Shown: piece after piece, positions 7,291 through 42,137 of the stretch
Numbering within the stretch: position 1 is the stretch's first letter
Layout: each line of letters begins with the position of its first letter
Program-made: the position numbers and the translations under genes
Notes under the pieces: model-generated
Seen by the model: the letters and a program-made list of their open reading frames with translations, nothing else
Databases searched by the model: none
What the model was told of the DNA's origin: nothing
From: a virus
Lineage: Duplodnaviria > Caudoviricetes
Length of the DNA stretch: 50,412 bases
IMG/VR virus record: IMGVR_UViG_3300049203_000028
Coordinates: 1-50,412 of that record
Strand: one strand, 5' to 3'

Positions 7291-8319
7291 TTAGGCCGCG
7301 ATCATCTTTTCGTACACGAGGGGGATCAGGCCCGCGTTAGCCGGCTGCGCGAGTTGTCCAGCAGCTTCGATGCCGAATTCCTTCGCGAACACGAGCATGT
7401 CGGCCATCGTCTTACCTTGCGCCGTGACCCACTTGCACAGTTCTGCGAAGTTGGTCGGCGCGGCTGCCGGTGCTGCCGGTGCTGCCGGTGCTGCCGGTGC
7501 TGCCGGTGCTGCCGGTGCTGCCGGTGCTGCCGGTGCTGCCTGGGCGGTCAACGGCTGGAAGGTCTGCGCGGCGGTGGGTTGCTGCTGACGCAGTTCGGCG
7601 ACGACCTGATTCATGTAGACTTCGCCGACGCCCTTTTTCTTCTTCCACGAGCCGTCCGCGTTCACGCTGCGGGAACCCGAGTGAATGCGGGCGTCCCACG
7701 GCAGGCCGGTTTTATCCGTGGCCGGGGGCGTCGCACCGCCAGTTTGCGCCGGCACATCCGTACTTGCAGGCGCGGCTTGCGCTGCAGGCAGAGTAGATGC
7801 GGTTGGTGGGGCGGAAATGGCCGGGGACGAACCAGACGCACCGGCCGACGGGACGTTTGGGGAATTGTCCAGTACCGGATGTTCGACGGTCATACGGCCG
7901 TCTTCGATCAGGTTGTCGTCGGTCCAGCCCTGGACGTGGTACTGCTCGCGGGTGAAGCCGTCAGCTTTGGTGGTCATCGTGTAGACCGGAGCGACGACGA
8001 CCGGAACGTTGGTCACCTGGGATACCGGCAACGGGGCCGATTGTGCGACATTGCCGCCCGAAGTCTGCACCGTGACGACGACCATGTCTTCTTTCGGCGC
8101 GGTGAATTGCGTCGCTTCGCCGAACACCTGGGCGGCGGTGTTGGTCGTCACGATGGGCGTTTCCTTGCCGACGTCCGGCGCGTCGTCGCCGATCTTGTCC
8201 AGGTATTCGCGGGCCGTCATTTCCAGACGGTCGGCGCCTTCTTCGGTCATTTCGGCCAGCGTGGCGAACGCGTTTGCGAGAACGCGGAATACGGTACGAA
8301 TTTGTTTGGAGTACATCAT
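7291..8319 (-). CDS. conserved phage replication-region protein with GWTD module and PWDARIH domain
   Basis: GAAGGA RBS; DKTGLPWDARIHSGSRSVNADGSWKKKKGV; first gene after the leftward promoter. Confidence 0.75.
   Translation of the reverse strand: MMYSKQIRTVFRVLANAFATLAEMTEEGADRLEMTAREYLDKIGDDAPDVGKETPIVTTNTAAQVFGEATQFTAPKEDMVVVTVQTSGGNVAQSAPLPVSQVTNVPVVVAPVYTMTTKADGFTREQYHVQGWTDDNLIEDGRMTVEHPVLDNSPNVPSAGASGSSPAISAPPTASTLPAAQAAPASTDVPAQTGGATPPATDKTGLPWDARIHSGSRSVNADGSWKKKKGVGEVYMNQVVAELRQQQPTAAQTFQPLTAQAAPAAPAAPAAPAAPAAPAAPAAPAAAPTNFAELCKWVTAQGKTMADMLVFAKEFGIEAAGQLAQPANAGLIPLVYEKMIAA
7463..7540. repeat. perfect 9-bp tandem repeat (GCTGCCGGT x8.7) encoding an APA linker
   Basis: Read directly from sequence. 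Confidence 0.95.
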
Positions 8320-10132: not shown

Positions 10133-10771
10133 ATGCATCTCACGCTTGATACATGCACGTCCGCACTGACCGCCGCTGCGATCAATCACAAGGCCGCCAT
10201 TCAACTGGAACTAGCTGTGGGGCTGGCGGTGTTCCACCTGTACAAAGGCACGAACAAGGACGCCCGAAAGATGCTCGCCCAGGCGTACTCTTTAGCCGGC
10301 TGGCAGTGCCAGAAGTTTGCCGACCCGGACTACAAGACGGTGAACCGCCGAATCAACGCAACGGCGTCCTTGTACGAAAAGGTTCCCGTTGCAAAGTGGA
10401 TCGGTCGCCTGGAAGAAATGGACATCATCCAGGCGATTTGCGAAGGTCTGGAACCGTACCAACTTTACACGATTCAGGACGTTCTACGATACGCCGCACC
10501 GCATCGCGTACAGGACAAGAAGTTCGCCGTCGCGCCCGCTCACGATCTGCTGTCGGGTCCGGCCGCCAACAACCACACGGGGCAGGACCGTATCATGCAG
10601 CAGTTCCGCCGAGCGTCGGACCATATCGACGAAGGTTCCCGCGTGCTCGCAACGGACCATATTTCGGTCGTCATTCCGAAGGAAACGACGCGCGCCGAAG
10701 TGTTGGAACTCGCCCGTCAACTGCTGGTGTTGGCTGATGAGAACAAAGAGGAAAAGTTGTTGACAGTCTAG
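10133..10771 (+). CDS. hypothetical protein (212 aa)
   Basis: GGAG RBS at 10123 before ATG 10133; normal codon usage; no recognised motif. Confidence 0.75.
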   Translation: MHLTLDTCTSALTAAAINHKAAIQLELAVGLAVFHLYKGTNKDARKMLAQAYSLAGWQCQKFADPDYKTVNRRINATASLYEKVPVAKWIGRLEEMDIIQAICEGLEPYQLYTIQDVLRYAAPHRVQDKKFAVAPAHDLLSGPAANNHTGQDRIMQQFRRASDHIDEGSRVLATDHISVVIPKETTRAEVLELARQLLVLADENKEEKLLTV

Positions 10772-10788
10772 TTAGTAAGACATATCCT
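10760..10788 (+). promoter_or_regulatory. sigma70-like promoter with operator motif
   Basis: TTGACA-17 bp-TATCCT; spacer contains GTTAGTA. Confidence 0.75.
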
Positions 10789-10822
10789 ACAGGGACCGTC
10801 TTTTCCTGTGGGATATTAAAAA

Positions 10823-11143
10823 ATGTCAACAACTCTGATTGAGGCAAGGACAGCGTTGCTCAAGCTGTCCAGCCAATTCCCCGCACCTTCAACGTATGCC
10901 GATTTGCTGGCGACCATTTCGGACTACTTCGACAACCAAGTACCTCTGAGTGTCGAAAACCGCAACCTTACGCAACGCGTAGCGGTTCTTGAAGCGACAA
11001 TCGAGCAGGTCCGCAAGACCCTCCCGGAAGACCCCGCACCCGCTACACCGAAGACCGGTATGCGTCGCGGGATCGACTGTACCGCCTGGATGGGTGTCGG
11101 TCGGTGCTCATGCCCAGCGTGCAAGGTAGAACAGCATGCATAG
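10823..11143 (+). CDS. hypothetical protein with coiled coil and C-terminal Cys cluster
   Basis: ORF after promoter; C...CSCPAC. Confidence 0.7.
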   Translation: MSTTLIEARTALLKLSSQFPAPSTYADLLATISDYFDNQVPLSVENRNLTQRVAVLEATIEQVRKTLPEDPAPATPKTGMRRGIDCTAWMGVGRCSCPACKVEQHA

Positions 11144-11615
11144 CATCGTCCACCAATGGGCGACCGACTGGGGTGTCCCTCAACACGCGGCAGTAGACCT
11201 GATGTGTCGTCTCGGCATGGGGTTCGAGCCCACTATGTTTGTCGAGTTGGAAGGATGGTCCGAAAGCGCGATCCAATCCAAGGTTAGACTCGACGCCGCC
11301 AAAGCTGGCATTCTCCCGTGGCGAAACAACGTCGGCGCGCTCCGGGACGACACCGGCCGCGTGGTCCGTTACGGCCTGTGCAACGACACGGAGCAGTTGA
11401 ACGAAAGCGTCAAGTCGTCGGACCTTATCGGCATCAATCCCGTGTTGATCAAACCGGAACACGTGGGGACGATCATCGGGCAGTTTTGGGCGCGCGAGGT
11501 CAAGGAATATGGCTGGAAGTACACCGGAACCGTACGCGAGGTTGCGCAAGCGAAGTTCGGTCAAATAGTGCTGTCCAAGGGCGGCGACTTCAAATTTACG
11601 ACAGGGGAAATTTAA
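11136..11615 (+). CDS. VRR-NUC domain nuclease
   Basis: SESAIQ, WRNNVG, SSDLIGI and EVK motifs. Confidence 0.85.
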   Translation: MHSIVHQWATDWGVPQHAAVDLMCRLGMGFEPTMFVELEGWSESAIQSKVRLDAAKAGILPWRNNVGALRDDTGRVVRYGLCNDTEQLNESVKSSDLIGINPVLIKPEHVGTIIGQFWAREVKEYGWKYTGTVREVAQAKFGQIVLSKGGDFKFTTGEI

Positions 11616-33414: not shown

Positions 33415-33957
33415 GTGGCGGCCGGTCTGAGCGGGGGCGACAAGCTGCGCGCCAAACTGGCCGAGATCGCGAAACAGATCGAAGGCAAGCATGAACTGCG
33501 CGTCGGGTTCCTTGAGGGCGCGACGTATCCAGACGAGGCGGGCACGCCGGTTGCGACCGTCGCATGGTGGCTGAACTACGGCACCAAGACCGCCCCGCCC
33601 CGCCCGTTCTTTACGAACATGGTCAAGACCAAGTCGGACAAATGGGGCGACGAACTGGCGGTCATCCTTCAACAAAACGATTTTGACGTCGACGCGGCGC
33701 TGCGGATCATGGGTGAGCGCATCAGCGGCCAGCTACGCGACGCCATCGTCGAACTTGACGCCCCGGCGCTGTCGCCAATCACCCTCATGCTGCGCAAGAT
33801 GCGCCACGACGACCCGCATTTGATCGTCACGGGTGCGACGGTCGGCGAGGCTGCGCGCCGCGTGGCGGCCGGCGAAAGTACGTCCCCGGCGTCGACGAAG
33901 GTCGGCGTTTTTACCGGGCACATGCTCAACAGCATTGATTACGAGGTCAAACCGTGA
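33415..33957 (+). CDS. neck/tail completion protein
   Basis: LRVGFLEGATYPD, YGT...PPRPFF, TGHMLNSI; GTG start inferred. Confidence 0.8.
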   Translation: MAAGLSGGDKLRAKLAEIAKQIEGKHELRVGFLEGATYPDEAGTPVATVAWWLNYGTKTAPPRPFFTNMVKTKSDKWGDELAVILQQNDFDVDAALRIMGERISGQLRDAIVELDAPALSPITLMLRKMRHDDPHLIVTGATVGEAARRVAAGESTSPASTKVGVFTGHMLNSIDYEVKP

Positions 33958-34325
33958 ACTTACATCAACTCGTCCGGGGCGTCGTTGGCGCAGTCAACCC
34001 GGACATCCCCGTGACGATCAAACCGAGCGCGGGCGCTGCGGAAGACGACACCGGGCGCGCGGTTCCGGCGTACGGGCCGACCATCCAGACGAGCGGGCAG
34101 AAACAGCCGATCACCGGTCGCGATATCGAGCGATTCCAGCAGCAAAATATTCAGGGCGTGACGTGTAAAATGCATCTGAACGGCAATTTCGAAGGACTGT
34201 TCCGCGTGCTCGGCAAAGGCGGCGATCTGCTGCAGTTTGAAGGGCGAACGTTTCTCGTCGCGAGCGTCATGGAACGGTGGCCGGACTGGTGCTGCGTCGC
34301 CCTCACTATGCAACTTGATCAATAG
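33954..34325 (+). CDS. head closure/head-tail joining protein
   Basis: MNLHQLVRG...VNP, KGGDLL, ERWPDWC. Confidence 0.8.
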   Translation: MNLHQLVRGVVGAVNPDIPVTIKPSAGAAEDDTGRAVPAYGPTIQTSGQKQPITGRDIERFQQQNIQGVTCKMHLNGNFEGLFRVLGKGGDLLQFEGRTFLVASVMERWPDWCCVALTMQLDQ

Positions 34326-34333
34326 GACCAATC

Positions 34334-34732
34334 ATGGCAATCACCCAAGCATTCCCGAACGCTTCCAAGCTCGAAGCCCTGCAGGCGTTGTGCCCGTCCG
34401 GCAGCACGTACAAGCTCGCCCTGTACACGTCGGCCGCCACGCTGGATAAGACGGCGACGACCTACTCGACGACGAACGAGGTCAGCGGCACCGGCTACAC
34501 CGCCGGCGGCGCGACCCTGACCGGATACAGCGCAGCCATGAGCGGCGACGCCGCGCAACTGACGTTCGCGTCGCCGTCCTGGGCGAACTCGACGATCACG
34601 GCGGCCGGTGCGGTCATTTACGATTCCGGCAGCGGCAAGATTCGCGGCGTGTTCAGCTTCGGCGGCAACATCACGTCGACGAACGGCACGTTCACCGCGA
34701 CGATTCCGGCCAACGTTATTTCGATCACCTGA
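34334..34732 (+). CDS. small beta-rich virion protein (candidate fibre bead subunit)
   Basis: AGGA RBS; YKLALYTS...NEVSGTGYTAGG...GAVIY...NGTFT. Confidence 0.7.
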   Translation: MAITQAFPNASKLEALQALCPSGSTYKLALYTSAATLDKTATTYSTTNEVSGTGYTAGGATLTGYSAAMSGDAAQLTFASPSWANSTITAAGAVIYDSGSGKIRGVFSFGGNITSTNGTFTATIPANVISIT

Positions 34733-34734
34733 CC

Positions 34735-35190
34735 ATGACGCCCGCCGAACTGGCGGTTCTGGCCGCCGAAATCAACGAAGACCCGCTCACCCTGGGATAC
34801 GCCTCGCACCTGCCGGGCGATCCGCAACGCGTTGTCGACCTGCTGACGGAACAGAAATACAGCATGGTCAAATCGCGATACGTGACCGCGCGTACGATCA
34901 TGGCGGAATGCGAAGACGGCGCGGCGATCCTGGACGCCCTGCAGACGCTTTCCGGTACGATCAGCGCCGTCAAATGGATGATGACGTTCTTGCAGCAAAA
35001 TTCCGGCATTGACGCGGGCCATCCAAAGACGCAAAAAAACATCGACGATCTCGCGGCGACCGGTAAGCTGAACGGGGCGTACGCTAACGAATTGAAGCAA
35101 ATCGCGGTGCAACCTGCCGCGCGCTTCGAAGTTATCGGCACCCCTGAACCTACCGCGCGCGACATCGTCCTCGCAACGGAGATTCAATAA
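34735..35190 (+). CDS. hypothetical protein in neck fibre cassette
   Basis: Coupled ORF; LAAEINEDPLTLGY. Confidence 0.7.
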   Translation: MTPAELAVLAAEINEDPLTLGYASHLPGDPQRVVDLLTEQKYSMVKSRYVTARTIMAECEDGAAILDALQTLSGTISAVKWMMTFLQQNSGIDAGHPKTQKNIDDLAATGKLNGAYANELKQIAVQPAARFEVIGTPEPTARDIVLATEIQ

Positions 35191-35675
35191 TGGCAGGCTC
35201 TATCCGTCTTCAAGAAGGCGCAATCCAAACGATCACGAGTACCGGCGCTGCGGCTACGTCCGGTTCTGCGATCCTGGCCGGAACGCTCGACACGCGCAGC
35301 GTCGCGGCGGCTGCAACGGCTGATATGTTCGCCGCGATGTTCAGTCTTACGGCGCAATGGGCAACCATCACCGGCATTGCGGCGAACACGACCATTGCTG
35401 ACCTGTACCTCGTGCCCGCGATTGATGGTACGAACTTCCCAGACGTGGACCTGACGAGCGGTGCTAGTTTCATCGCGTATCCGTACCGCGTGGGGTCGTT
35501 CGTGGCGTCCAAAGCTCCGACTGCAAATACGAACATGTTGTTCGGCACGGCGAGTATGGTTCCGGTAGAACTGTTCCCGTCCCTCTACAACGTCTACATC
35601 CTGAACAGGTCCAGCCAATCGATTTCCGCAAACTGGACCCTTAAAGCTCAAGCTGCCGGCGCGCAGTACACGTAA
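35190..35675 (+). CDS. beta-rich virion protein in neck fibre cassette
   Basis: GGAG RBS, TAATG coupling; LYLVPAIDGTNF. Confidence 0.7.
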   Translation: MAGSIRLQEGAIQTITSTGAAATSGSAILAGTLDTRSVAAAATADMFAAMFSLTAQWATITGIAANTTIADLYLVPAIDGTNFPDVDLTSGASFIAYPYRVGSFVASKAPTANTNMLFGTASMVPVELFPSLYNVYILNRSSQSISANWTLKAQAAGAQYT

Positions 35676-37603
35676 TGGCTGCGCTCGTCGCAAAGCGTGT
35701 GCGAACCACGCAGCCGCAGCCAGGGGAAGCGGCCCTAATTGATTGGAACAATCCGATCACGCGGGACATGACCGTTTGCTTAACGCATGCGGATCAAGCG
35801 TACGGGTATGCCTATTCGCTGTCGGGCGGCGCCCCTAGCGTTTTGAACAACGTGCCGTTCAACGCAGCAGGGTCGCAAGCGAACACGAGTCAAGGCACGG
35901 GTGCAAAGTCGTCGGGCACATCCTCGCTATACAGCCTGAACTCAATCGGTTCAATTAACTCGCCGAACTACAGTCTGTTTGCCTTTGCGTCATGTGGGTC
36001 CGCCAGCGTGACGCAAAGCGCGTTGGACATGGACAACAGTTCTGAGCGGTATTTCCAGTTCCGCATCGTCAACGGCAAGGTCGACTTCATCCCGTTTAAC
36101 TCGGCCATGAATGCCGCAACAGGTGAGGCGATTGCGCCTGTTGCAATGACCGTCGCGGAGATGTCGCGCGGCTTCACGATGGGCGCAACGGCCAGCCCGA
36201 CGCGCACCGCGTGCTTCCAAAACGGTAGCATCACCGTGGGCGCACCGTCTGCAATGAAGACGCCGAACACGTTGATCCCGATCGCTGTCGGCTCACGTTC
36301 AACCGGCACGCAGGTATGGTCAAACGGCTCGCTGATGCTGATCGTCGCCTGGACGCGCACGCTCGCTGATGCCGAAATGCAGTCGCTCGCGGACAACCCG
36401 TGGCAACTGTTCAAGCCGAAGCAACGCCACCTTTACATGGTGTCGCCTGCCGCCTCTGGCGACGGGACGGCCCCCGTAACCGGCGTATCGGCGACATCCG
36501 GCGTCGCCAGCGTGAGCGCATCGGGCGACGCGTCAGTTGGTGTTACTGGCGTCCAGGCGGCGACCGGTGCTGCAACCATCGCGGCGACCGGTGGCGCAGG
36601 CGTGAGTGTCACGGGGGTCTCTGTCGGATCGACCGTCGCCAGCGTACCTGCAACCGGTGGCGCGTCAACGACCATGGCCGGCGTATCGGCTGCATCCGGG
36701 GTCGGCACCGTGGCGGCCACTGGCGGCGCGAATACAGCCCTTACAGGCGTTTCGGCGGCGTCGGCAGTGGGAACCATCGCCGCGTCGGCTGGCGGCAGCG
36801 CCACGGCCCCAATAAGCGGCGTATCGGCCGCATCCGGGGTCGCCAGCGTGGCCGCCAGTGGCGGCGCTACGGTGTCCCTGGGCACGACGTACAGTCAAGG
36901 CAAGGTCGACGTCGTCGACGCGGGCGGCGGCGCAACGAGCGTTACGATCGCGGTGAGCGCTGCGGCGTCTGTCGGCACGATTACCGCATCGGGTACGACC
37001 GGAAGCGCTACCGCGAACTTGCAGGGCGTCACAGCGACGGCAGCAGTCGGCACGGTCTCGGCGACTGGAACGCGGACGGCAATCGAAGTGAACGTCACCG
37101 AAGACATGATCTGTCGCGCGGTGCGGGCGTACATCAAGAGCATTGCACCGACGTTGTCCGTCCAGCGTACCCCCGTGAACCGCGCGTCGATGCCGAACGG
37201 CGCGTATGTGTCGTTCACGCCCGGATTGCGCCGCGCGCTGTCGACGAATCGTGCGTTCAACGACGCCAACTCGCGCACCGTCGACCGGCCCGAGCAAATG
37301 TCGTTTCAGATCGATTGCTATGGTGCGGGCTCGGCGGAACTGGCCGAAACACTCAACGTGCTGTACCGCGACGTGTACGCGTGCGACCTGTTCGCAGGGC
37401 TCGGATTCGACGGCGCACCGCTGTACGCTGGCGACATCCAACAGGCGCCGTATGTGAACGATGCAGACCAGTATGAGGACCGGTACACGTTCGAAATTGA
37501 ATTGCAGATCAACTCACGCGTAATCGTACCGCTTCAATCCTGTAATATCTTGGGTATCAATCTGGTATCGGTTGACGCAAACTTCCCACCAACAGAGGAA
37601 TAA
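35675..37603 (+). CDS. fusion of LamG/ConA-like domain, 22-aa repeat stalk and tail terminator
   Basis: IDWNNP...WTRTLADAEMQSLADNPWQ; GVSA repeats; C-terminal QIDCYG, PLYA and QYEDRY just upstream of the sheath gene. Confidence 0.8.
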   Translation: MAALVAKRVRTTQPQPGEAALIDWNNPITRDMTVCLTHADQAYGYAYSLSGGAPSVLNNVPFNAAGSQANTSQGTGAKSSGTSSLYSLNSIGSINSPNYSLFAFASCGSASVTQSALDMDNSSERYFQFRIVNGKVDFIPFNSAMNAATGEAIAPVAMTVAEMSRGFTMGATASPTRTACFQNGSITVGAPSAMKTPNTLIPIAVGSRSTGTQVWSNGSLMLIVAWTRTLADAEMQSLADNPWQLFKPKQRHLYMVSPAASGDGTAPVTGVSATSGVASVSASGDASVGVTGVQAATGAATIAATGGAGVSVTGVSVGSTVASVPATGGASTTMAGVSAASGVGTVAATGGANTALTGVSAASAVGTIAASAGGSATAPISGVSAASGVASVAASGGATVSLGTTYSQGKVDVVDAGGGATSVTIAVSAAASVGTITASGTTGSATANLQGVTATAAVGTVSATGTRTAIEVNVTEDMICRAVRAYIKSIAPTLSVQRTPVNRASMPNGAYVSFTPGLRRALSTNRAFNDANSRTVDRPEQMSFQIDCYGAGSAELAETLNVLYRDVYACDLFAGLGFDGAPLYAGDIQQAPYVNDADQYEDRYTFEIELQINSRVIVPLQSCNILGINLVSVDANFPPTEE

Positions 37604-37606
37604 ACC

Positions 37607-39130
37607 ATGTCCATTCCGGCAAAAAAACTTGTCAACGTTATCCCCGGCGTAATCGCGGCGGGCGGTGCGGCGCTGGCCCTGTCAGGTTTGATCCTGACCG
37701 CGAACACCGCCGTCCCCATCGGCGCGGTACAGCAGTTCTCGACCTCCGACGCGGTGTCGGCGTTCTTTGGCCCGAACAGTACCGAGGCGTCGCTTGCGGC
37801 CGTCTACTTCGCGGGCTTCGACAACTCGACTGCCAAACCGGCAAACCTGCTGTTCTGGCAGTACCCCACCGCCCCCGTGGCCGCATACCTGCGCGGCGGT
37901 TCGGTCGCGACAATGACCCTCACCCAACTGCAGGCGATCCCGTCCGGTACGATGTCCGTCACCGTTGACGGCGTCGTCAAAACATCGTCGTCGATCGCCC
38001 TCGCGACGGCTACCAGCTTCAGCGACGCGGCGAGCAAGATCACTGCGGCGTTCACGGGTGGTCCGACCGTAACGTACGATGCGCAGCGCGCGGCGTTCGT
38101 CGTAACGTCCGGTACGACCGGCGCGACGTCGACGATCACTTTCGCGACCGGCGCGATCGCAACGGCGCTGAACCTGACCCAAGCGTTGGGCGCCGTCACG
38201 TCGCAAGGCGCCATCGCCAGCACGCCGGCCGCCGCGATGACCGCTATCGTCGGTAAGGCGCTGAACTGGGCGGGCTTCATGACCGTGTTCGAACCCGTCA
38301 TCGCCGACAAGATCGCCTTTGCGACCTGGGCGTCGCAACAGGGCGACCGCTTCGCATACGCATGCTGGGATACGGACGTCAACGCGACCGCGCAGGGCAA
38401 CACGACGTGTTTCGGCGCGCAGGCTAAGGCACTGGGCCTGTCCGGCAGTATCGCCCTCACCGCCGATACGAACGTCGCCGCCGACCTGGGCGTCACGATG
38501 CAGTCGATCGCGCAGCCGCTCGCCGCATTCACGCTGGGCTATCTGGCATCGATCGACTTCACGCGTACGAATGGCCGCGTGACGGCCGCGTATCGCAGTC
38601 AAGGCGGTATCGTGCCGGGCGTGACCGACGCAACGGTCGGCGATACGCTGATCGCGAACGGGTACAACTTCTACGGCAATTACGCCACGTCGCAACAGTC
38701 GTTCACCTTCCTGCAACCGGGTCAAATCTCGGGCCGTTTCGACTGGATCGACAGCTTCGCCAATGAAGTGTGGCTCAACGCCAATTTCCAACAAACGCTC
38801 ATGGCGTTCATGGCGGCATCCGGCTCGATCCCGTACAATGCTGCCGGCTACGCGGCAATCGAAACGGTACTCCAAGACCCGATCAATCAAGCGCTCGACT
38901 TCGGCGCGATCCGTGGCGGCGTCTCGCTGTCGGGCTCGCAAATCGTGTCCGTCAACGCGACCGCCGGCCAAAGCATCGATCCCGTGCTGTCGACGCGCGG
39001 TTGGTATCTGAGCATCAAAGACCCCGGCGCATCGGTGCGCGCTGCCCGTGGCACGCCGCAGATGACGTTCTTTTACTGCGATGGCGGTTCGGTCCAACAA
39101 ATGACGCTCGCGTCCCTGATGGTTCAATAA
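37607..39130 (+). CDS. tail sheath protein (DUF3383-like)
   Basis: MSIPAKKLVNVIPGV, YFAGFDNS, NGYNFYG, IPYN, FFYCDGGSVQ. Confidence 0.92.
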   Translation: MSIPAKKLVNVIPGVIAAGGAALALSGLILTANTAVPIGAVQQFSTSDAVSAFFGPNSTEASLAAVYFAGFDNSTAKPANLLFWQYPTAPVAAYLRGGSVATMTLTQLQAIPSGTMSVTVDGVVKTSSSIALATATSFSDAASKITAAFTGGPTVTYDAQRAAFVVTSGTTGATSTITFATGAIATALNLTQALGAVTSQGAIASTPAAAMTAIVGKALNWAGFMTVFEPVIADKIAFATWASQQGDRFAYACWDTDVNATAQGNTTCFGAQAKALGLSGSIALTADTNVAADLGVTMQSIAQPLAAFTLGYLASIDFTRTNGRVTAAYRSQGGIVPGVTDATVGDTLIANGYNFYGNYATSQQSFTFLQPGQISGRFDWIDSFANEVWLNANFQQTLMAFMAASGSIPYNAAGYAAIETVLQDPINQALDFGAIRGGVSLSGSQIVSVNATAGQSIDPVLSTRGWYLSIKDPGASVRAARGTPQMTFFYCDGGSVQQMTLASLMVQ

Positions 39131-40006: not shown

Positions 40007-40179
40007 TCAACTACGAAAATGTGCCGGCGACAATCGGCACGGTCGTATCGAGAGGTCTTGCGACTCTACACGAATTGGACACCGTGTACGGGACGCAAGA
40101 CCTTTACGACATGTTGGAAATCATCGCCGTTGACGCGCATAACGAGCGTGTGTCGCGGCAGGCACAAGGCGCAAAATGA
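40000..40179 (+). CDS. tail assembly chaperone extension (gpT-like; -1 frame, or GTG start at 40021)
   Basis: RLINYENVPATIGTVVSRGLATLHELDTVYGTQDLYDMLEII...; ATGA overlap with tape measure gene. Confidence 0.7.
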   Translation, partial: RLINYENVPATIGTVVSRGLATLHELDTVYGTQDLYDMLEIIAVDAHNERVSRQAQGAK

Positions 40180-42137
40180 GCACAACAGTTATCGACGCAT
40201 TCGTGACGACGCTCGGCCTGGACGGAACGCTGTTCCGAAAGGGCATGAAGGACGCGGAGAACGCACAAGACAAGCTCGACAAGAACACGAAGCGCATCAA
40301 CCGCGATCGCGAGAAGTCCGAGCAGGAAGCCGCAAAGGCGCGCGAGAAGCGCCAAAAGCAAATCGACGAGCAGGGCAAACGTAGCGTCGAGGGCTACAAG
40401 AAGGTCCGCAACGAACTCCTTGCGATCGGCGCTATTTTTACGGCCGGCGTCGGCATCAAAGACTTCCTGACGAACACGATCAACACCGCCGCGAACCTGG
40501 GCTACCTGTCGCAAAACCTGCGCATGTCGACCGAGGACTTGACGTCGTGGCAGCGCGCCAGTGAGCGTGCAGGCGGCAGCGCGGAAGGCATCATCGGCCA
40601 GTTGAAGGAGTCGGCCGAGACGCTCGCGGCGTTCAAGTCAGGCATGGGTCCGAACGAGGGTTTGCAATCGTTCTTCCGGTGGGGCGGCAAACCCGAAGAC
40701 CTGAAGGACGGCAATACTTACCTGCTCGCGCGCTCGCGCATCATCTCGGAAATGTTCAAGCGCGACCCGGCGCAAGCATCCGTGATCGCGAAACAGATGG
40801 GCGTCGCAGAAGATCAATTCAACTTCCTGAAGCAAGGTCCGGACGCGGTGATGGACCTCGTGCGCGCGCAGGAAAAGAACGCCGCCATCACCGCGAAGGA
40901 CGCCGCCGAAGCGCTCAAACTAAAGAACCGATTGCTTGACCTGCGCGACAGCTTGACGTCCACGGGGACGCGCATCGCCGTCCAGTTAATCCCGCTTATC
41001 GACATGATGGTCGAAAGGCTGACCAAATTGTCGCAATGGGCGATCGACCACAAGGACGATATTGCGCGCTGGGTCGACAACATGACCGTGTGGATCAAGG
41101 ACTTCGTGAAGACGGCCGACAGCGCAGCGGAGGCGGTCGGGGGCTGGAAGAACGTCTTGATCGGGCTAGCTGCGTTCAAGGCGTTGTCGATGGCTGCCAG
41201 CTTCGTGACGCTCGCCGGGTCGCTCGTGCAACTTGCTGGCGGACTGTCCGCCGTTGCTGCAGGTGGGGGCGCGTTGAGCGTGCTCGCAGGGCTTGCCGCT
41301 GCCGGCCTGGGCGGCGCGCTGGGTTACGGCGTCGGTACGGTCATCAGTAAAAACCTAAGCGACGAGACCAACAACAGCATCGGGCGCGGCATCGCGAAGG
41401 TTCTCGCGAAACTGGGCGTAAAGAGCGCACAAGAAGCGCTCGACAACGAGGCGGCCGCCAGCGTGGCGCAACGATCGGCGTCGGGAAAGATCAAACCCAT
41501 GCCGAAGAAGTCATCCGACCCGAAGCCCGTCGTCGATAAGTTGGTGGGCATGGGCTGGACGTCCGAGCAGGCCGCAGGGATCGCTGCAAGCTTCATGCAA
41601 GAAAGCAACCTCGACCCAACCGCGCGCAACTCCACATCGGGTGCTTACGGCATCGGGCAATGGCTCGGCTCGCGCGTGGCCGACTTTAAAGAGTTCACCG
41701 GGCGCGATCTCGTCGGATCGTCGTTGGAGGACCAACTGAGGTTCTTCCAGCACGAGGTTACCAATGGCAAGGAGAAGCGCGCGGGGAACATGCTACGGGC
41801 CGCCAAAACGGCCGAGGACGCCGCGCGCATCCATTCCGAGGCGTATGAGCGTCCAGGCGCTGAAGAAGCCAACATCGACCGTCGTAAGCGCCTTGCCGCG
41901 CAACTGGCGGCGAGCGGCCGCGCAGCCAACGCCGCGACGGTGGGGTCGATCCCTGCAGGTGCGGCCGCCAGCGTGCCGAACAGCGTGACATCGACCAGCA
42001 CGTCGAAAAGCGAAGTCACCATCGGCAACATCAACATCCAGACGCAAGCCACGGACGCGCAGGGCGTCGCGACCGCGATCCGGCCCGCCGTGGAGAAATA
42101 CACGTTCGCGTCGCAGGCAAACACGGGGGTCCGGTAA
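40176..42137 (+). CDS. tape measure protein with C-terminal tail lysozyme domain
   Basis: Helical Ala/Gly-rich body; AAGIAASFMQESNLDP...AYGIGQWLGSR...YERP. Confidence 0.9.
   Translation: MSTTVIDAFVTTLGLDGTLFRKGMKDAENAQDKLDKNTKRINRDREKSEQEAAKAREKRQKQIDEQGKRSVEGYKKVRNELLAIGAIFTAGVGIKDFLTNTINTAANLGYLSQNLRMSTEDLTSWQRASERAGGSAEGIIGQLKESAETLAAFKSGMGPNEGLQSFFRWGGKPEDLKDGNTYLLARSRIISEMFKRDPAQASVIAKQMGVAEDQFNFLKQGPDAVMDLVRAQEKNAAITAKDAAEALKLKNRLLDLRDSLTSTGTRIAVQLIPLIDMMVERLTKLSQWAIDHKDDIARWVDNMTVWIKDFVKTADSAAEAVGGWKNVLIGLAAFKALSMAASFVTLAGSLVQLAGGLSAVAAGGGALSVLAGLAAAGLGGALGYGVGTVISKNLSDETNNSIGRGIAKVLAKLGVKSAQEALDNEAAASVAQRSASGKIKPMPKKSSDPKPVVDKLVGMGWTSEQAAGIAASFMQESNLDPTARNSTSGAYGIGQWLGSRVADFKEFTGRDLVGSSLEDQLRFFQHEVTNGKEKRAGNMLRAAKTAEDAARIHSEAYERPGAEEANIDRRKRLAAQLAASGRAANAATVGSIPAGAAASVPNSVTSTSTSKSEVTIGNINIQTQATDAQGVATAIRPAVEKYTFASQANTGVR

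Follow-up and report, generated by a model that had tools for sequence, protein, structure and literature searches.

A candidate bead-chain neck fibre fused to the tail terminator of an uncultured soil myophage

Why does the gene directly before the tail sheath gene of a contractile-tailed phage encode 642 amino acids (aa), when its counterparts in related phages encode terminators of about 180? The tail terminator is usually regarded as a minimal cap. We addressed this question in IMGVR_UViG_3300049203_000028, a record of 50,412 bases assembled from a metagenome that represents an uncultured soil phage and is complete by the CheckV estimate; this whole stretch is hereafter called the window. 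A first-pass annotation had proposed that three extra genes, here named A, B, and C, and a 642-aa fusion protein occupy the place where a short terminator gene is expected, and that the fusion carries a chain of small beads made of protein A. The extra genes and the fusion were confirmed by the open reading frames (ORFs) and by synteny with Pantoea phage PA-1 and Burkholderia phage PE067. A bead-chain neck fibre anchored on the terminator is, in our judgment, the best explanation of this locus and probably the right one.

The four genes of the proposed cassette lie one after another on the plus strand. Gene A (34334-34732) encodes a 132-aa protein, the proposed bead, which belongs to phrog_644 (E 4e-13); it is followed by gene B (34735-35190, 151 aa), gene C (35190-35675, 161 aa, beta-rich and jelly-roll-like), and the fusion ORF (35675-37603), which is defined by the ORF call and by its homologues and whose ATG at 35675 is overlapped by the stop codon of C by one base. 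The fusion comprises a ConA/LamG-like head (aa 1-262, 35675-36460), a repetitive rope (aa 269-471, 36479-37087), and a tail (neck) terminator domain (aa 470-642, 37082-37603). Upstream of A lies the phrog_1912 "head protein" gene (33954-34325, plus strand), the last canonical neck/head gene before the insertion, and downstream of the fusion lies the DUF3383 tail sheath gene (37607-39130, plus strand), which fixes the position of the terminator. In PA-1 and PE067, a synteny comparison placed a terminator gene of 180-183 aa directly after the phrog_1912 homologue and directly before the sheath gene; what the window has in addition is therefore A, B, and C, together with some 470 codons at the start of the 642-aa ORF. 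The structural module as a whole is of the type found in PE067, PA-1, and Bcep1, with a contractile tail, and includes a DUF4054 adaptor, a Neck1 protein, the phrog_1912 protein, the DUF3383 sheath, an E217-gp32-type tube, a chaperone, and a tape measure.

The C-terminal part of the fusion is an intact terminator domain, as the first-pass annotation had suggested. Residues 481-628 matched PF23961, "phage neck terminator" (E 6.9e-21; 75 bits against a 27-bit cut-off), and residues 470-634 matched phrog_1876 (E 2.5e-38). This was the single PF23961 match in the whole record, and it lies directly upstream of the sheath gene. The rope continues unbroken into this domain, which makes it part of a neck/tail ring protein, and the stand-alone PA-1 homologue of the terminator starts where the window rope stops. 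Ten further proteins (591-705 aa), drawn from several sources, had the same head-rope-terminator fusion with a conserved junction, GTRTxIxVxVTEDM, and the whole gene order was repeated in five viral contigs (L003-L007). Within the fused group, identity to the window protein was 65-88% for the terminator, 36-65% for the rope, and 24-69% for the head.

A check of the fusion junction, which had been called for at the outset, was made on assembled contigs, in which minor variants at the junction are invisible, and not on reads. Contigs of four soil or rhizosphere runs showed no insertion or deletion relative to the window, and a contig from a different study, not the one that probably yielded the window, spanned 36913-37555 with zero differences. 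The fusion is thus real. The database copy of the protein (P0001) is a 524-aa form that begins at M119; we preferred the 642-aa start because the first 118 residues (35675-36031) were conserved in an alignment of the homologues and because the ATG overlaps the stop codon of C. Among GenBank phage records, 77 matched the fusion ORF; none covered 80% of it, and the 30 matches listed covered residues 470-641 only. GTDB genome contigs, scanned with the fused alignment, yielded no fused form and only a stand-alone terminator, in a Gluconobacter metagenome-assembled genome, and phmmer matched the complete fusion to no PDB sequence at E ≤ 1.

The rope consists of nine units of 22-24 aa with the consensus TGVSAxSxVGTVxAxGGAxxxL. 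The autocorrelation of the protein sequence was maximal at a lag of 22 (score 1.59, 37% identity), and in 1000 shuffles that preserved the composition, no lag between 5 and 59 gave a score as high (top shuffle, 0.87). The nine 22-aa repeats of the first-pass annotation were therefore upheld, and their position was corrected from 36455-37065 to 36479-37087. Tandem Repeats Finder detected no repeat in the DNA, so that the repeats exist at the protein level only, indicating that the copies are old and diverged. Unit 7 (aa 403-426, nucleotides (nt) 36881-36952; GTTYSQGKVDVVDA...) is degenerate. The closest homologues retain this degenerate unit, which P0006 and P0009 lack; it could act as a hinge or as the binding site of a further partner.

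The length of the rope varied among the fused homologues. The stretch from head to terminator measured 182, 204, 205, 227 (four homologues and the window), 231, and 311 aa, and a period of 22 was the best in all ten fused proteins measured; P0014, which lacks the motif at the end of the head, was left out of the stretch measurement. By sequence comparison, the homologues differ in steps of about 22 aa, that is, in whole units, which supports the earlier proposal that the number of repeats would set the length of the fibre. With about 8 to 14 units, these natural variants offer a way of testing the repeat ruler directly.

To what would such a rope bind? The AlphaFold2 model of protein A had a predicted local distance difference test (pLDDT) score of 97.3 and consisted of an N-terminal helix (residues 9-19) followed by a beta-sandwich. 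The best Foldseek match in the PDB was 9mt4_L, a chain of ~100 residues in the entry of the Bas63 connector (E 0.16, probability 0.91, template modelling (TM) scores 0.48/0.56), followed by chains M, K, and I of 9mt4; chain K of the Sf14 neck entry was also among the matches, and TM scores over the top matches were 0.37-0.56. As a lead only, the nearest named Atlas cluster to A was "podophage GP4 fiber I protein gp80" (score 0.90), in which PF23140 occurs in 23% of the members. A has very many relatives: its family comprises 1983 cluster representatives at E ≤ 1e-3. Five members of this family (P0045, P0052, P0107, P0121, and P0122) are 206-315 aa long and match A in two stretches; to judge from this pattern, they would be tandem-duplicated beads, each a covalent dimer.

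We then modelled four copies of A together with fusion residues 330-381, which contain two units, a prediction that the first-pass annotation had recommended. The A4-rope complex had interaction prediction scores from aligned errors (ipSAE) of 0.77, 0.75, and 0.73, versus 0.00 for the best of three controls, with partner pLDDT of at least 72, contact agreement of at least 92%, and pLDDT of 73-82 for the rope segment in the presence of A. Calibration of this score had put 58 of 80 solved complexes at or above the mark, along with 2 of 110 mismatched pairs. All four A copies contacted the rope with one surface, together covering residues 330-349 and 352-375, and the tightest contacts were predicted between the conserved xVGTIxA strand (363-370) and A residues 90-93, 105-109, and 120-129. 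Four copies of A on two repeats correspond to two copies, a dimer, per repeat, as in the solved rope fibres. The first-pass annotation had placed one copy of A on each repeat; the placement of A on the repeats was retained, and the number of copies was revised to the two that were modelled. In silico, the rope thus binds successive A dimers by beta-sheet augmentation, one per 22-aa unit. Modelling and gene linkage together support the binding of A to the rope with two copies per unit.

The gene linkage was examined in a set of 80 viral loci, out of 590 confirmed candidates, that had been fetched by homology to A alone; in 69 of them the A homologue was followed by 900 nt or more. We counted as a rope any same-strand ORF that starts within 2.6 kb downstream and contains at least four TGVxAT-type motifs spaced 20-24 aa. 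Such a rope was found downstream of A in 27 of the 69 loci, and 20 of these ORFs start at most 120 nt past the stop codon of A. As background, the 1939 six-frame ORFs of 80 aa or more contained only five such ORFs at other positions. This spaced-motif test is conservative, because the window rope itself scores 3 against the threshold of 4. Downstream periodicity reached z ≥ 6 in 22 of the 37 A loci with at least 2.5 kb downstream, and the printed sequences were of the window repeat type; in the loci selected by A, a hidden Markov model of the 22-aa unit gave no match under strict domain filters.

Some of these loci differ from the window in the protein that carries the rope. At L057, L067, L075, L082, L091, L105, L109, and others, stand-alone ropes of the GVSA type lie just downstream of an A homologue and have no lectin-like head; they begin with a Trp/Gly-rich GWGxGxWGxGxWG segment and often end in a repeated QxPxW (...NVWGxIDxxQxPxWxEIAA). 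A homologues were also present in two cultured phages, Pelagibacter phage HTVC027P (L035; gp67, gp68) and Microcystis phage MJing1 (L036). In HTVC027P the next gene, gp68, contains irregular xLGSVT repeats, and in MJing1 the next gene, annotated as "tail repeat like protein", contains three 22-aa HxHxISDVTGLQxALDGKA repeats. Either phage could serve as an experimental model.

The N-terminal end of the fusion would form the free end of the fibre. Residues 1-262 matched no Pfam family even at E 10, and the more distant homologues P0009, P0035, and P0038-P0041 carry PF13385 (Laminin_G_3). The full-length AlphaFold2 model of the fusion had a mean pLDDT of 57.6, with 74-88 in the core of the head and only 35-58 in the rope, which was poorly modelled alone. 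This full-length model gave 188 Foldseek matches in the PDB at E ≤ 0.001, led by ConA-like lectin domains, including the lectin domain of a trypanosomal sialidase, the pentraxin domain of PTX3, and CBM40, and the head has the jelly-roll beta-sandwich fold of the ConA-like lectin/LamG superfamily. The LamG/ConA-like domain of the first-pass annotation was therefore recovered, with its end moved from aa 260 to aa 262. On the basis of this fold, the head probably binds carbohydrate, such as a glycan of the host surface. Its C-terminal end is a conserved joint, DNPWQLFKP..R.L. In P0009, the head was 25% identical to that of the window protein, compared with 57% for the rope and 73% for the terminator, suggesting that heads are exchanged at this joint.

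Proteins B and C matched no Pfam or PHROG family, and B, C, and the head domain each had no tblastn match in 50,697 phage records. The Atlas model of C is jelly-roll-like; folds resembling carbohydrate-binding modules (CBM), PCMD, and F5/8-type-C domains were found at TM about 0.5, and Bbp16 occurs in 21% of the members of the nearest named Atlas cluster, all of which we regard as leads only. From their co-occurrence with the head, B would be an assembly factor or a tip component and C a tip partner of the head domain; by analogy with gp40 and gp41 of podophage A1002, C might be a second bead protein.

These results can be combined into the following model. A four-gene fibre cassette (A, B, C, and a head-rope gene) would have been inserted before the terminator gene of a myophage of the PE067/PA-1 type, and its last gene would have been fused in frame to the terminator. 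As is usual in its family, the terminator domain would assemble into a hexameric ring atop the tube and sheath, and each of the six N-termini would continue as a rope of ~200 residues with nine 22-residue units, presumably displayed outward. The beta-strands of each unit would complete the open beta-sandwiches of an A dimer, giving about nine A dimers per rope, or ~18 copies of A per chain and 108 per virion. The free N-terminus would bear the lectin-like head, probably joined by C and perhaps by B. The outcome would be six beaded neck fibres whose length is set by the number of repeats, roughly 25 nm if scaled from the fibre of podophage A1002, for which PMC13730344 gives about 300 Å for 11 dimers. 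The distal end would probably bind a glycan of the host surface in a first, reversible contact; alternatively, the fibres may brace the joint between head and tail, as has been proposed for Bas63 (PMC12609058).

Several points weigh against a bead-chain fibre. The whole case is computational and the phage is uncultured. No Foldseek match of A in the PDB reached E ≤ 0.001, the best being at E 0.16, and the GP4 entry 8JOU was absent among the matches listed for A. A profile of 61 A-family members searched against PDB sequences gave only two chance-level rows (E about 1), and none of the 61 members matched PF23140 (Gp80) at E ≤ 0.01. Given these weak structural matches and empty profile searches, the kinship of A to the solved beads is suggestive rather than established. 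The A4-rope job departed from the calibration in that it used four copies and alignments of our own, and its score may partly reflect the memory that the model has of solved rope fibres. In addition, 42 of the 69 A-family loci had no rope by the strict motif test, so that the link is not universal. Finally, the terminator might be released by weak internal initiation or by proteolytic cleavage.

Repeats rich in Ala, Gly, Thr, Val, and Ser are common in fibre shafts, and the rope might instead fold on itself or self-associate to give a beta-rich shaft of its own, perhaps a trimeric fibre or a beta-helix, with A as an unrelated virion protein, for example a decoration protein or a separate fibre. 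The short beta-hairpins that the AlphaFold2 monomer model places along the repeats, and the lack of a significant match of A to a solved bead protein, fit such a shaft. However, the hairpins had low pLDDT (35-58), whereas the same rope gained both confidence and a high interface score with A (ipSAE 0.75, versus 0.00 in the controls); repeat-type ORFs were far commoner after A-family genes than among other ORFs; and a six-fold ring offers no obvious trimer. We consider a self-folding shaft unlikely. Another way to read the locus keeps the terminator ring bare in the mature virion: an internal start near codons 472-478, or proteolysis, would free the terminator, and the head-rope part would act elsewhere or be discarded. 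An in-frame GTG at 37088 and an ATG at 37106 do lie at the domain border, a weak GGACGG precedes the GTG by 8-13 nt, and related cassettes carry other C-terminal anchors, which implies that the rope needs no terminator. Yet, in agreement with the first-pass annotation, neither start codon is preceded by a strong Shine-Dalgarno sequence. The fused frame and the junction motif were kept in ten homologues down to 36% rope identity, the genome has no second terminator gene, and the solved rope fibres also have fused anchors (the Bas63 collar and a nozzle part in A1002, according to PMC12609058 and PMC13730344), all of which make a bare ring improbable. That the long ORF merely joins two genes through an error of assembly or annotation is a thought raised by the metagenomic origin of the window and by the protein database, which holds only the form starting at M119; the recurrence of the fusion in L003-L007 and in further proteins from other sources, the contigs of four runs without insertion or deletion, one contig of another study that spans the junction exactly, and the conservation of the first 118 residues leave this hardly credible.

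With the terminator-anchored bead-chain fibre as the preferred reading, we asked how far its parts occur elsewhere. The head domain was found unfused to a terminator in 18 further viral loci (L008-L025), none of which shared the capsid or tail genes of the window at E ≤ 1e-4. B was present in 13 of the 18 loci and C likewise in 13. A database annotation assigns one unfused head-domain homologue to Massilia sp., and the hosts are probably Burkholderiales of soil. The ropes that follow the unfused heads fall into other repeat families: an RRL type with period 22, a WTEADD type with period 21, an SQ/NQ type with period 24, a Ser/Thr/Ala-rich type with period 20, and the type of L025. An ORF of 113-217 aa ends just before B, in the position of A, in 14 of the 15 loci examined; at L010 the small-gene candidate ends farther upstream of B, yet it matches the A profile. 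RRL-type ropes were paired with a 137-aa small protein in five of five loci and WTEADD-type ropes with a 127-aa protein in two of two. B, C, and the head thus stay recognisable while the type of the rope and the small gene in the A position change together, and there are at least five rope repeat families, with periods of 20-24 residues, each with its own small protein. A direct hhalign comparison of the A profile with the 137-aa protein of L008 gave a probability of 6%; BLAST single linkage through L022 and L025 joined A to this protein.

Two further features of these head-rope proteins concern their C-terminal ends. At L018, L020, L021, and L023, the RRL-type head-rope ORF continues in frame into a homologue of the 111-aa gene (7521-7856) that in L008 comes after it as a separate gene; at the level of sequence, this is a second case of a rope that gained a C-terminal partner by fusion. 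A basic C-terminal tail, RAPxGxGYxP...RP...QRNxR, is shared by the head-rope proteins P0012, P0039, L014, and L019, which have differing rope types, and it may be a common anchor peptide.

A broader hypothesis, which we put forward tentatively and hold to be just short of evenly balanced, is that the locus is one instance of a portable fibre kit (bead, B, C, and head-rope-anchor) that can be plugged onto any virion ring protein, with matched and exclusive bead-rope pairs, a length ruler of one unit, head swaps at the DNPWQLFKP joint, and anchors acquired by fusion. The anchors gained in this way would be the terminator here and the 111-aa downstream protein in the other contigs. If true, rope fibres would be a widespread modular system in soil and aquatic viromes rather than an oddity confined to a handful of phages. 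Such fibres could be recognised from sequence alone, by 22-residue docking repeats next to a small bead gene, and the very large family of viral hypothetical proteins in phrog_644 would receive a working annotation. A modular cassette with matched bead and rope types and swappable lectin-like heads would also be relevant to the host-range biology of phages and to the building of defined protein chains.

Outside the cassette, the tape measure (40176-42137 of the window) was 99% identical between the window and L003-L007, compared with ~83% for the major capsid protein and ~92% for the sheath. This identity suggests a recent exchange of the tape-measure region or an unusually strong constraint. 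Compared with L003 and L004, L005 and L007 have ~700 additional bases separating the chaperone gene from the tape-measure gene, at about 10330-11216.

To our knowledge, rope fibres were recognised only in 2023 to 2026, from a handful of cryo-electron microscopy structures. The podophage VP1 reportedly has a related bead-on-rope fibre. The first-pass annotation knew of no description of such an architecture in a myovirus, and this claim did not survive the comparison with the felixounaviruses Bas63 and Sf14 (PDB 9mt4, 9c39), whose whisker dimers are assembled on a collar rope. According to PMC12609058, the Bas63 whisker dimers wrap the collar rope "like beads on a string", and each collar protein bears two of them; the beta-sandwiches of the whisker monomers are incomplete and are completed by the rope, and the whiskers and rope are called homologous to GP4 Fiber-1 and to its separate rope protein. 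The likeness to the window lies in a myophage neck where small dimers sit on the N-terminal rope of a ring protein. In Bas63 and Sf14, however, the anchor is a 12-fold Ig-like collar, each rope holds two dimers, and there is no distal head, whereas the window would have a 6-fold terminator anchor, nine docking units, a ConA/LamG-like head, and the additional proteins B and C. No sequence similarity between these whiskers and A was detectable by profile search.

The Pseudomonas podophage A1002 resembles the window in the layout of its fibre protein, with a beta-sandwich at the free end, a long rope, and a C-terminal ring protein. According to PMC13730344, eleven dimers of gp40/gp41 (147-171 aa) dock by beta-sheet augmentation on the fibre-dock of gp39, mainly on residues 243-468 (226 residues); an Ig-like domain ends the fibre-dock, and gp39 contributes its C-terminus to the hexameric nozzle. 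The ~20-22 rope residues per dimer and the six fibres per virion agree with what we propose for the window. As described there, A1002 differs in being a podophage with two bead proteins, in its anchor, which is half of a split nozzle, and in its fibres, which wrap the tail tube; in the window, a single bead gene was recognised, and the anchor would be the terminator atop a contractile tail. In Fiber I of the Ralstonia podophage GP4 (PDB 8JOU; PF23140), as described in PMC12609058 and PMC13730344, gp80 dimers are likewise carried on a rope. The GP4 rope is free-standing, is locked into an Ig-like collar, and holds five dimers, in contrast to the window rope, which is fused to the terminator. 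Given Bas63/Sf14, A1002, and GP4, the general kind of fibre is known, including at the neck of a myophage.

In the open-access literature, apart from supplements and the primary papers on GP4, VP1, and Sf14, we found no description of a terminator-anchored rope fibre, a lectin-headed rope, or a bead-B-C-head-rope cassette. The terminator as anchor, the lectin-like head, B and C, and a portable cassette with matched bead and rope types, which we found described nowhere, therefore appear to be new. The C-terminal 173 residues of the fusion belong to the same family as the stand-alone terminators of PE067, PA-1, Bcep1, and Xanthomonas OP2-like phages and as the E217 gateway protein gp29, which is hexameric according to PMC10329688. 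These stand-alone terminators share with the window the gene position before the DUF3383 sheath and E217-gp32-type tube genes; unlike the window ORF, they are ~180 aa long and have no N-terminal extension. If the proposed model is correct, the window would add to this family a tail terminator that serves as a new type of anchor for rope fibres.

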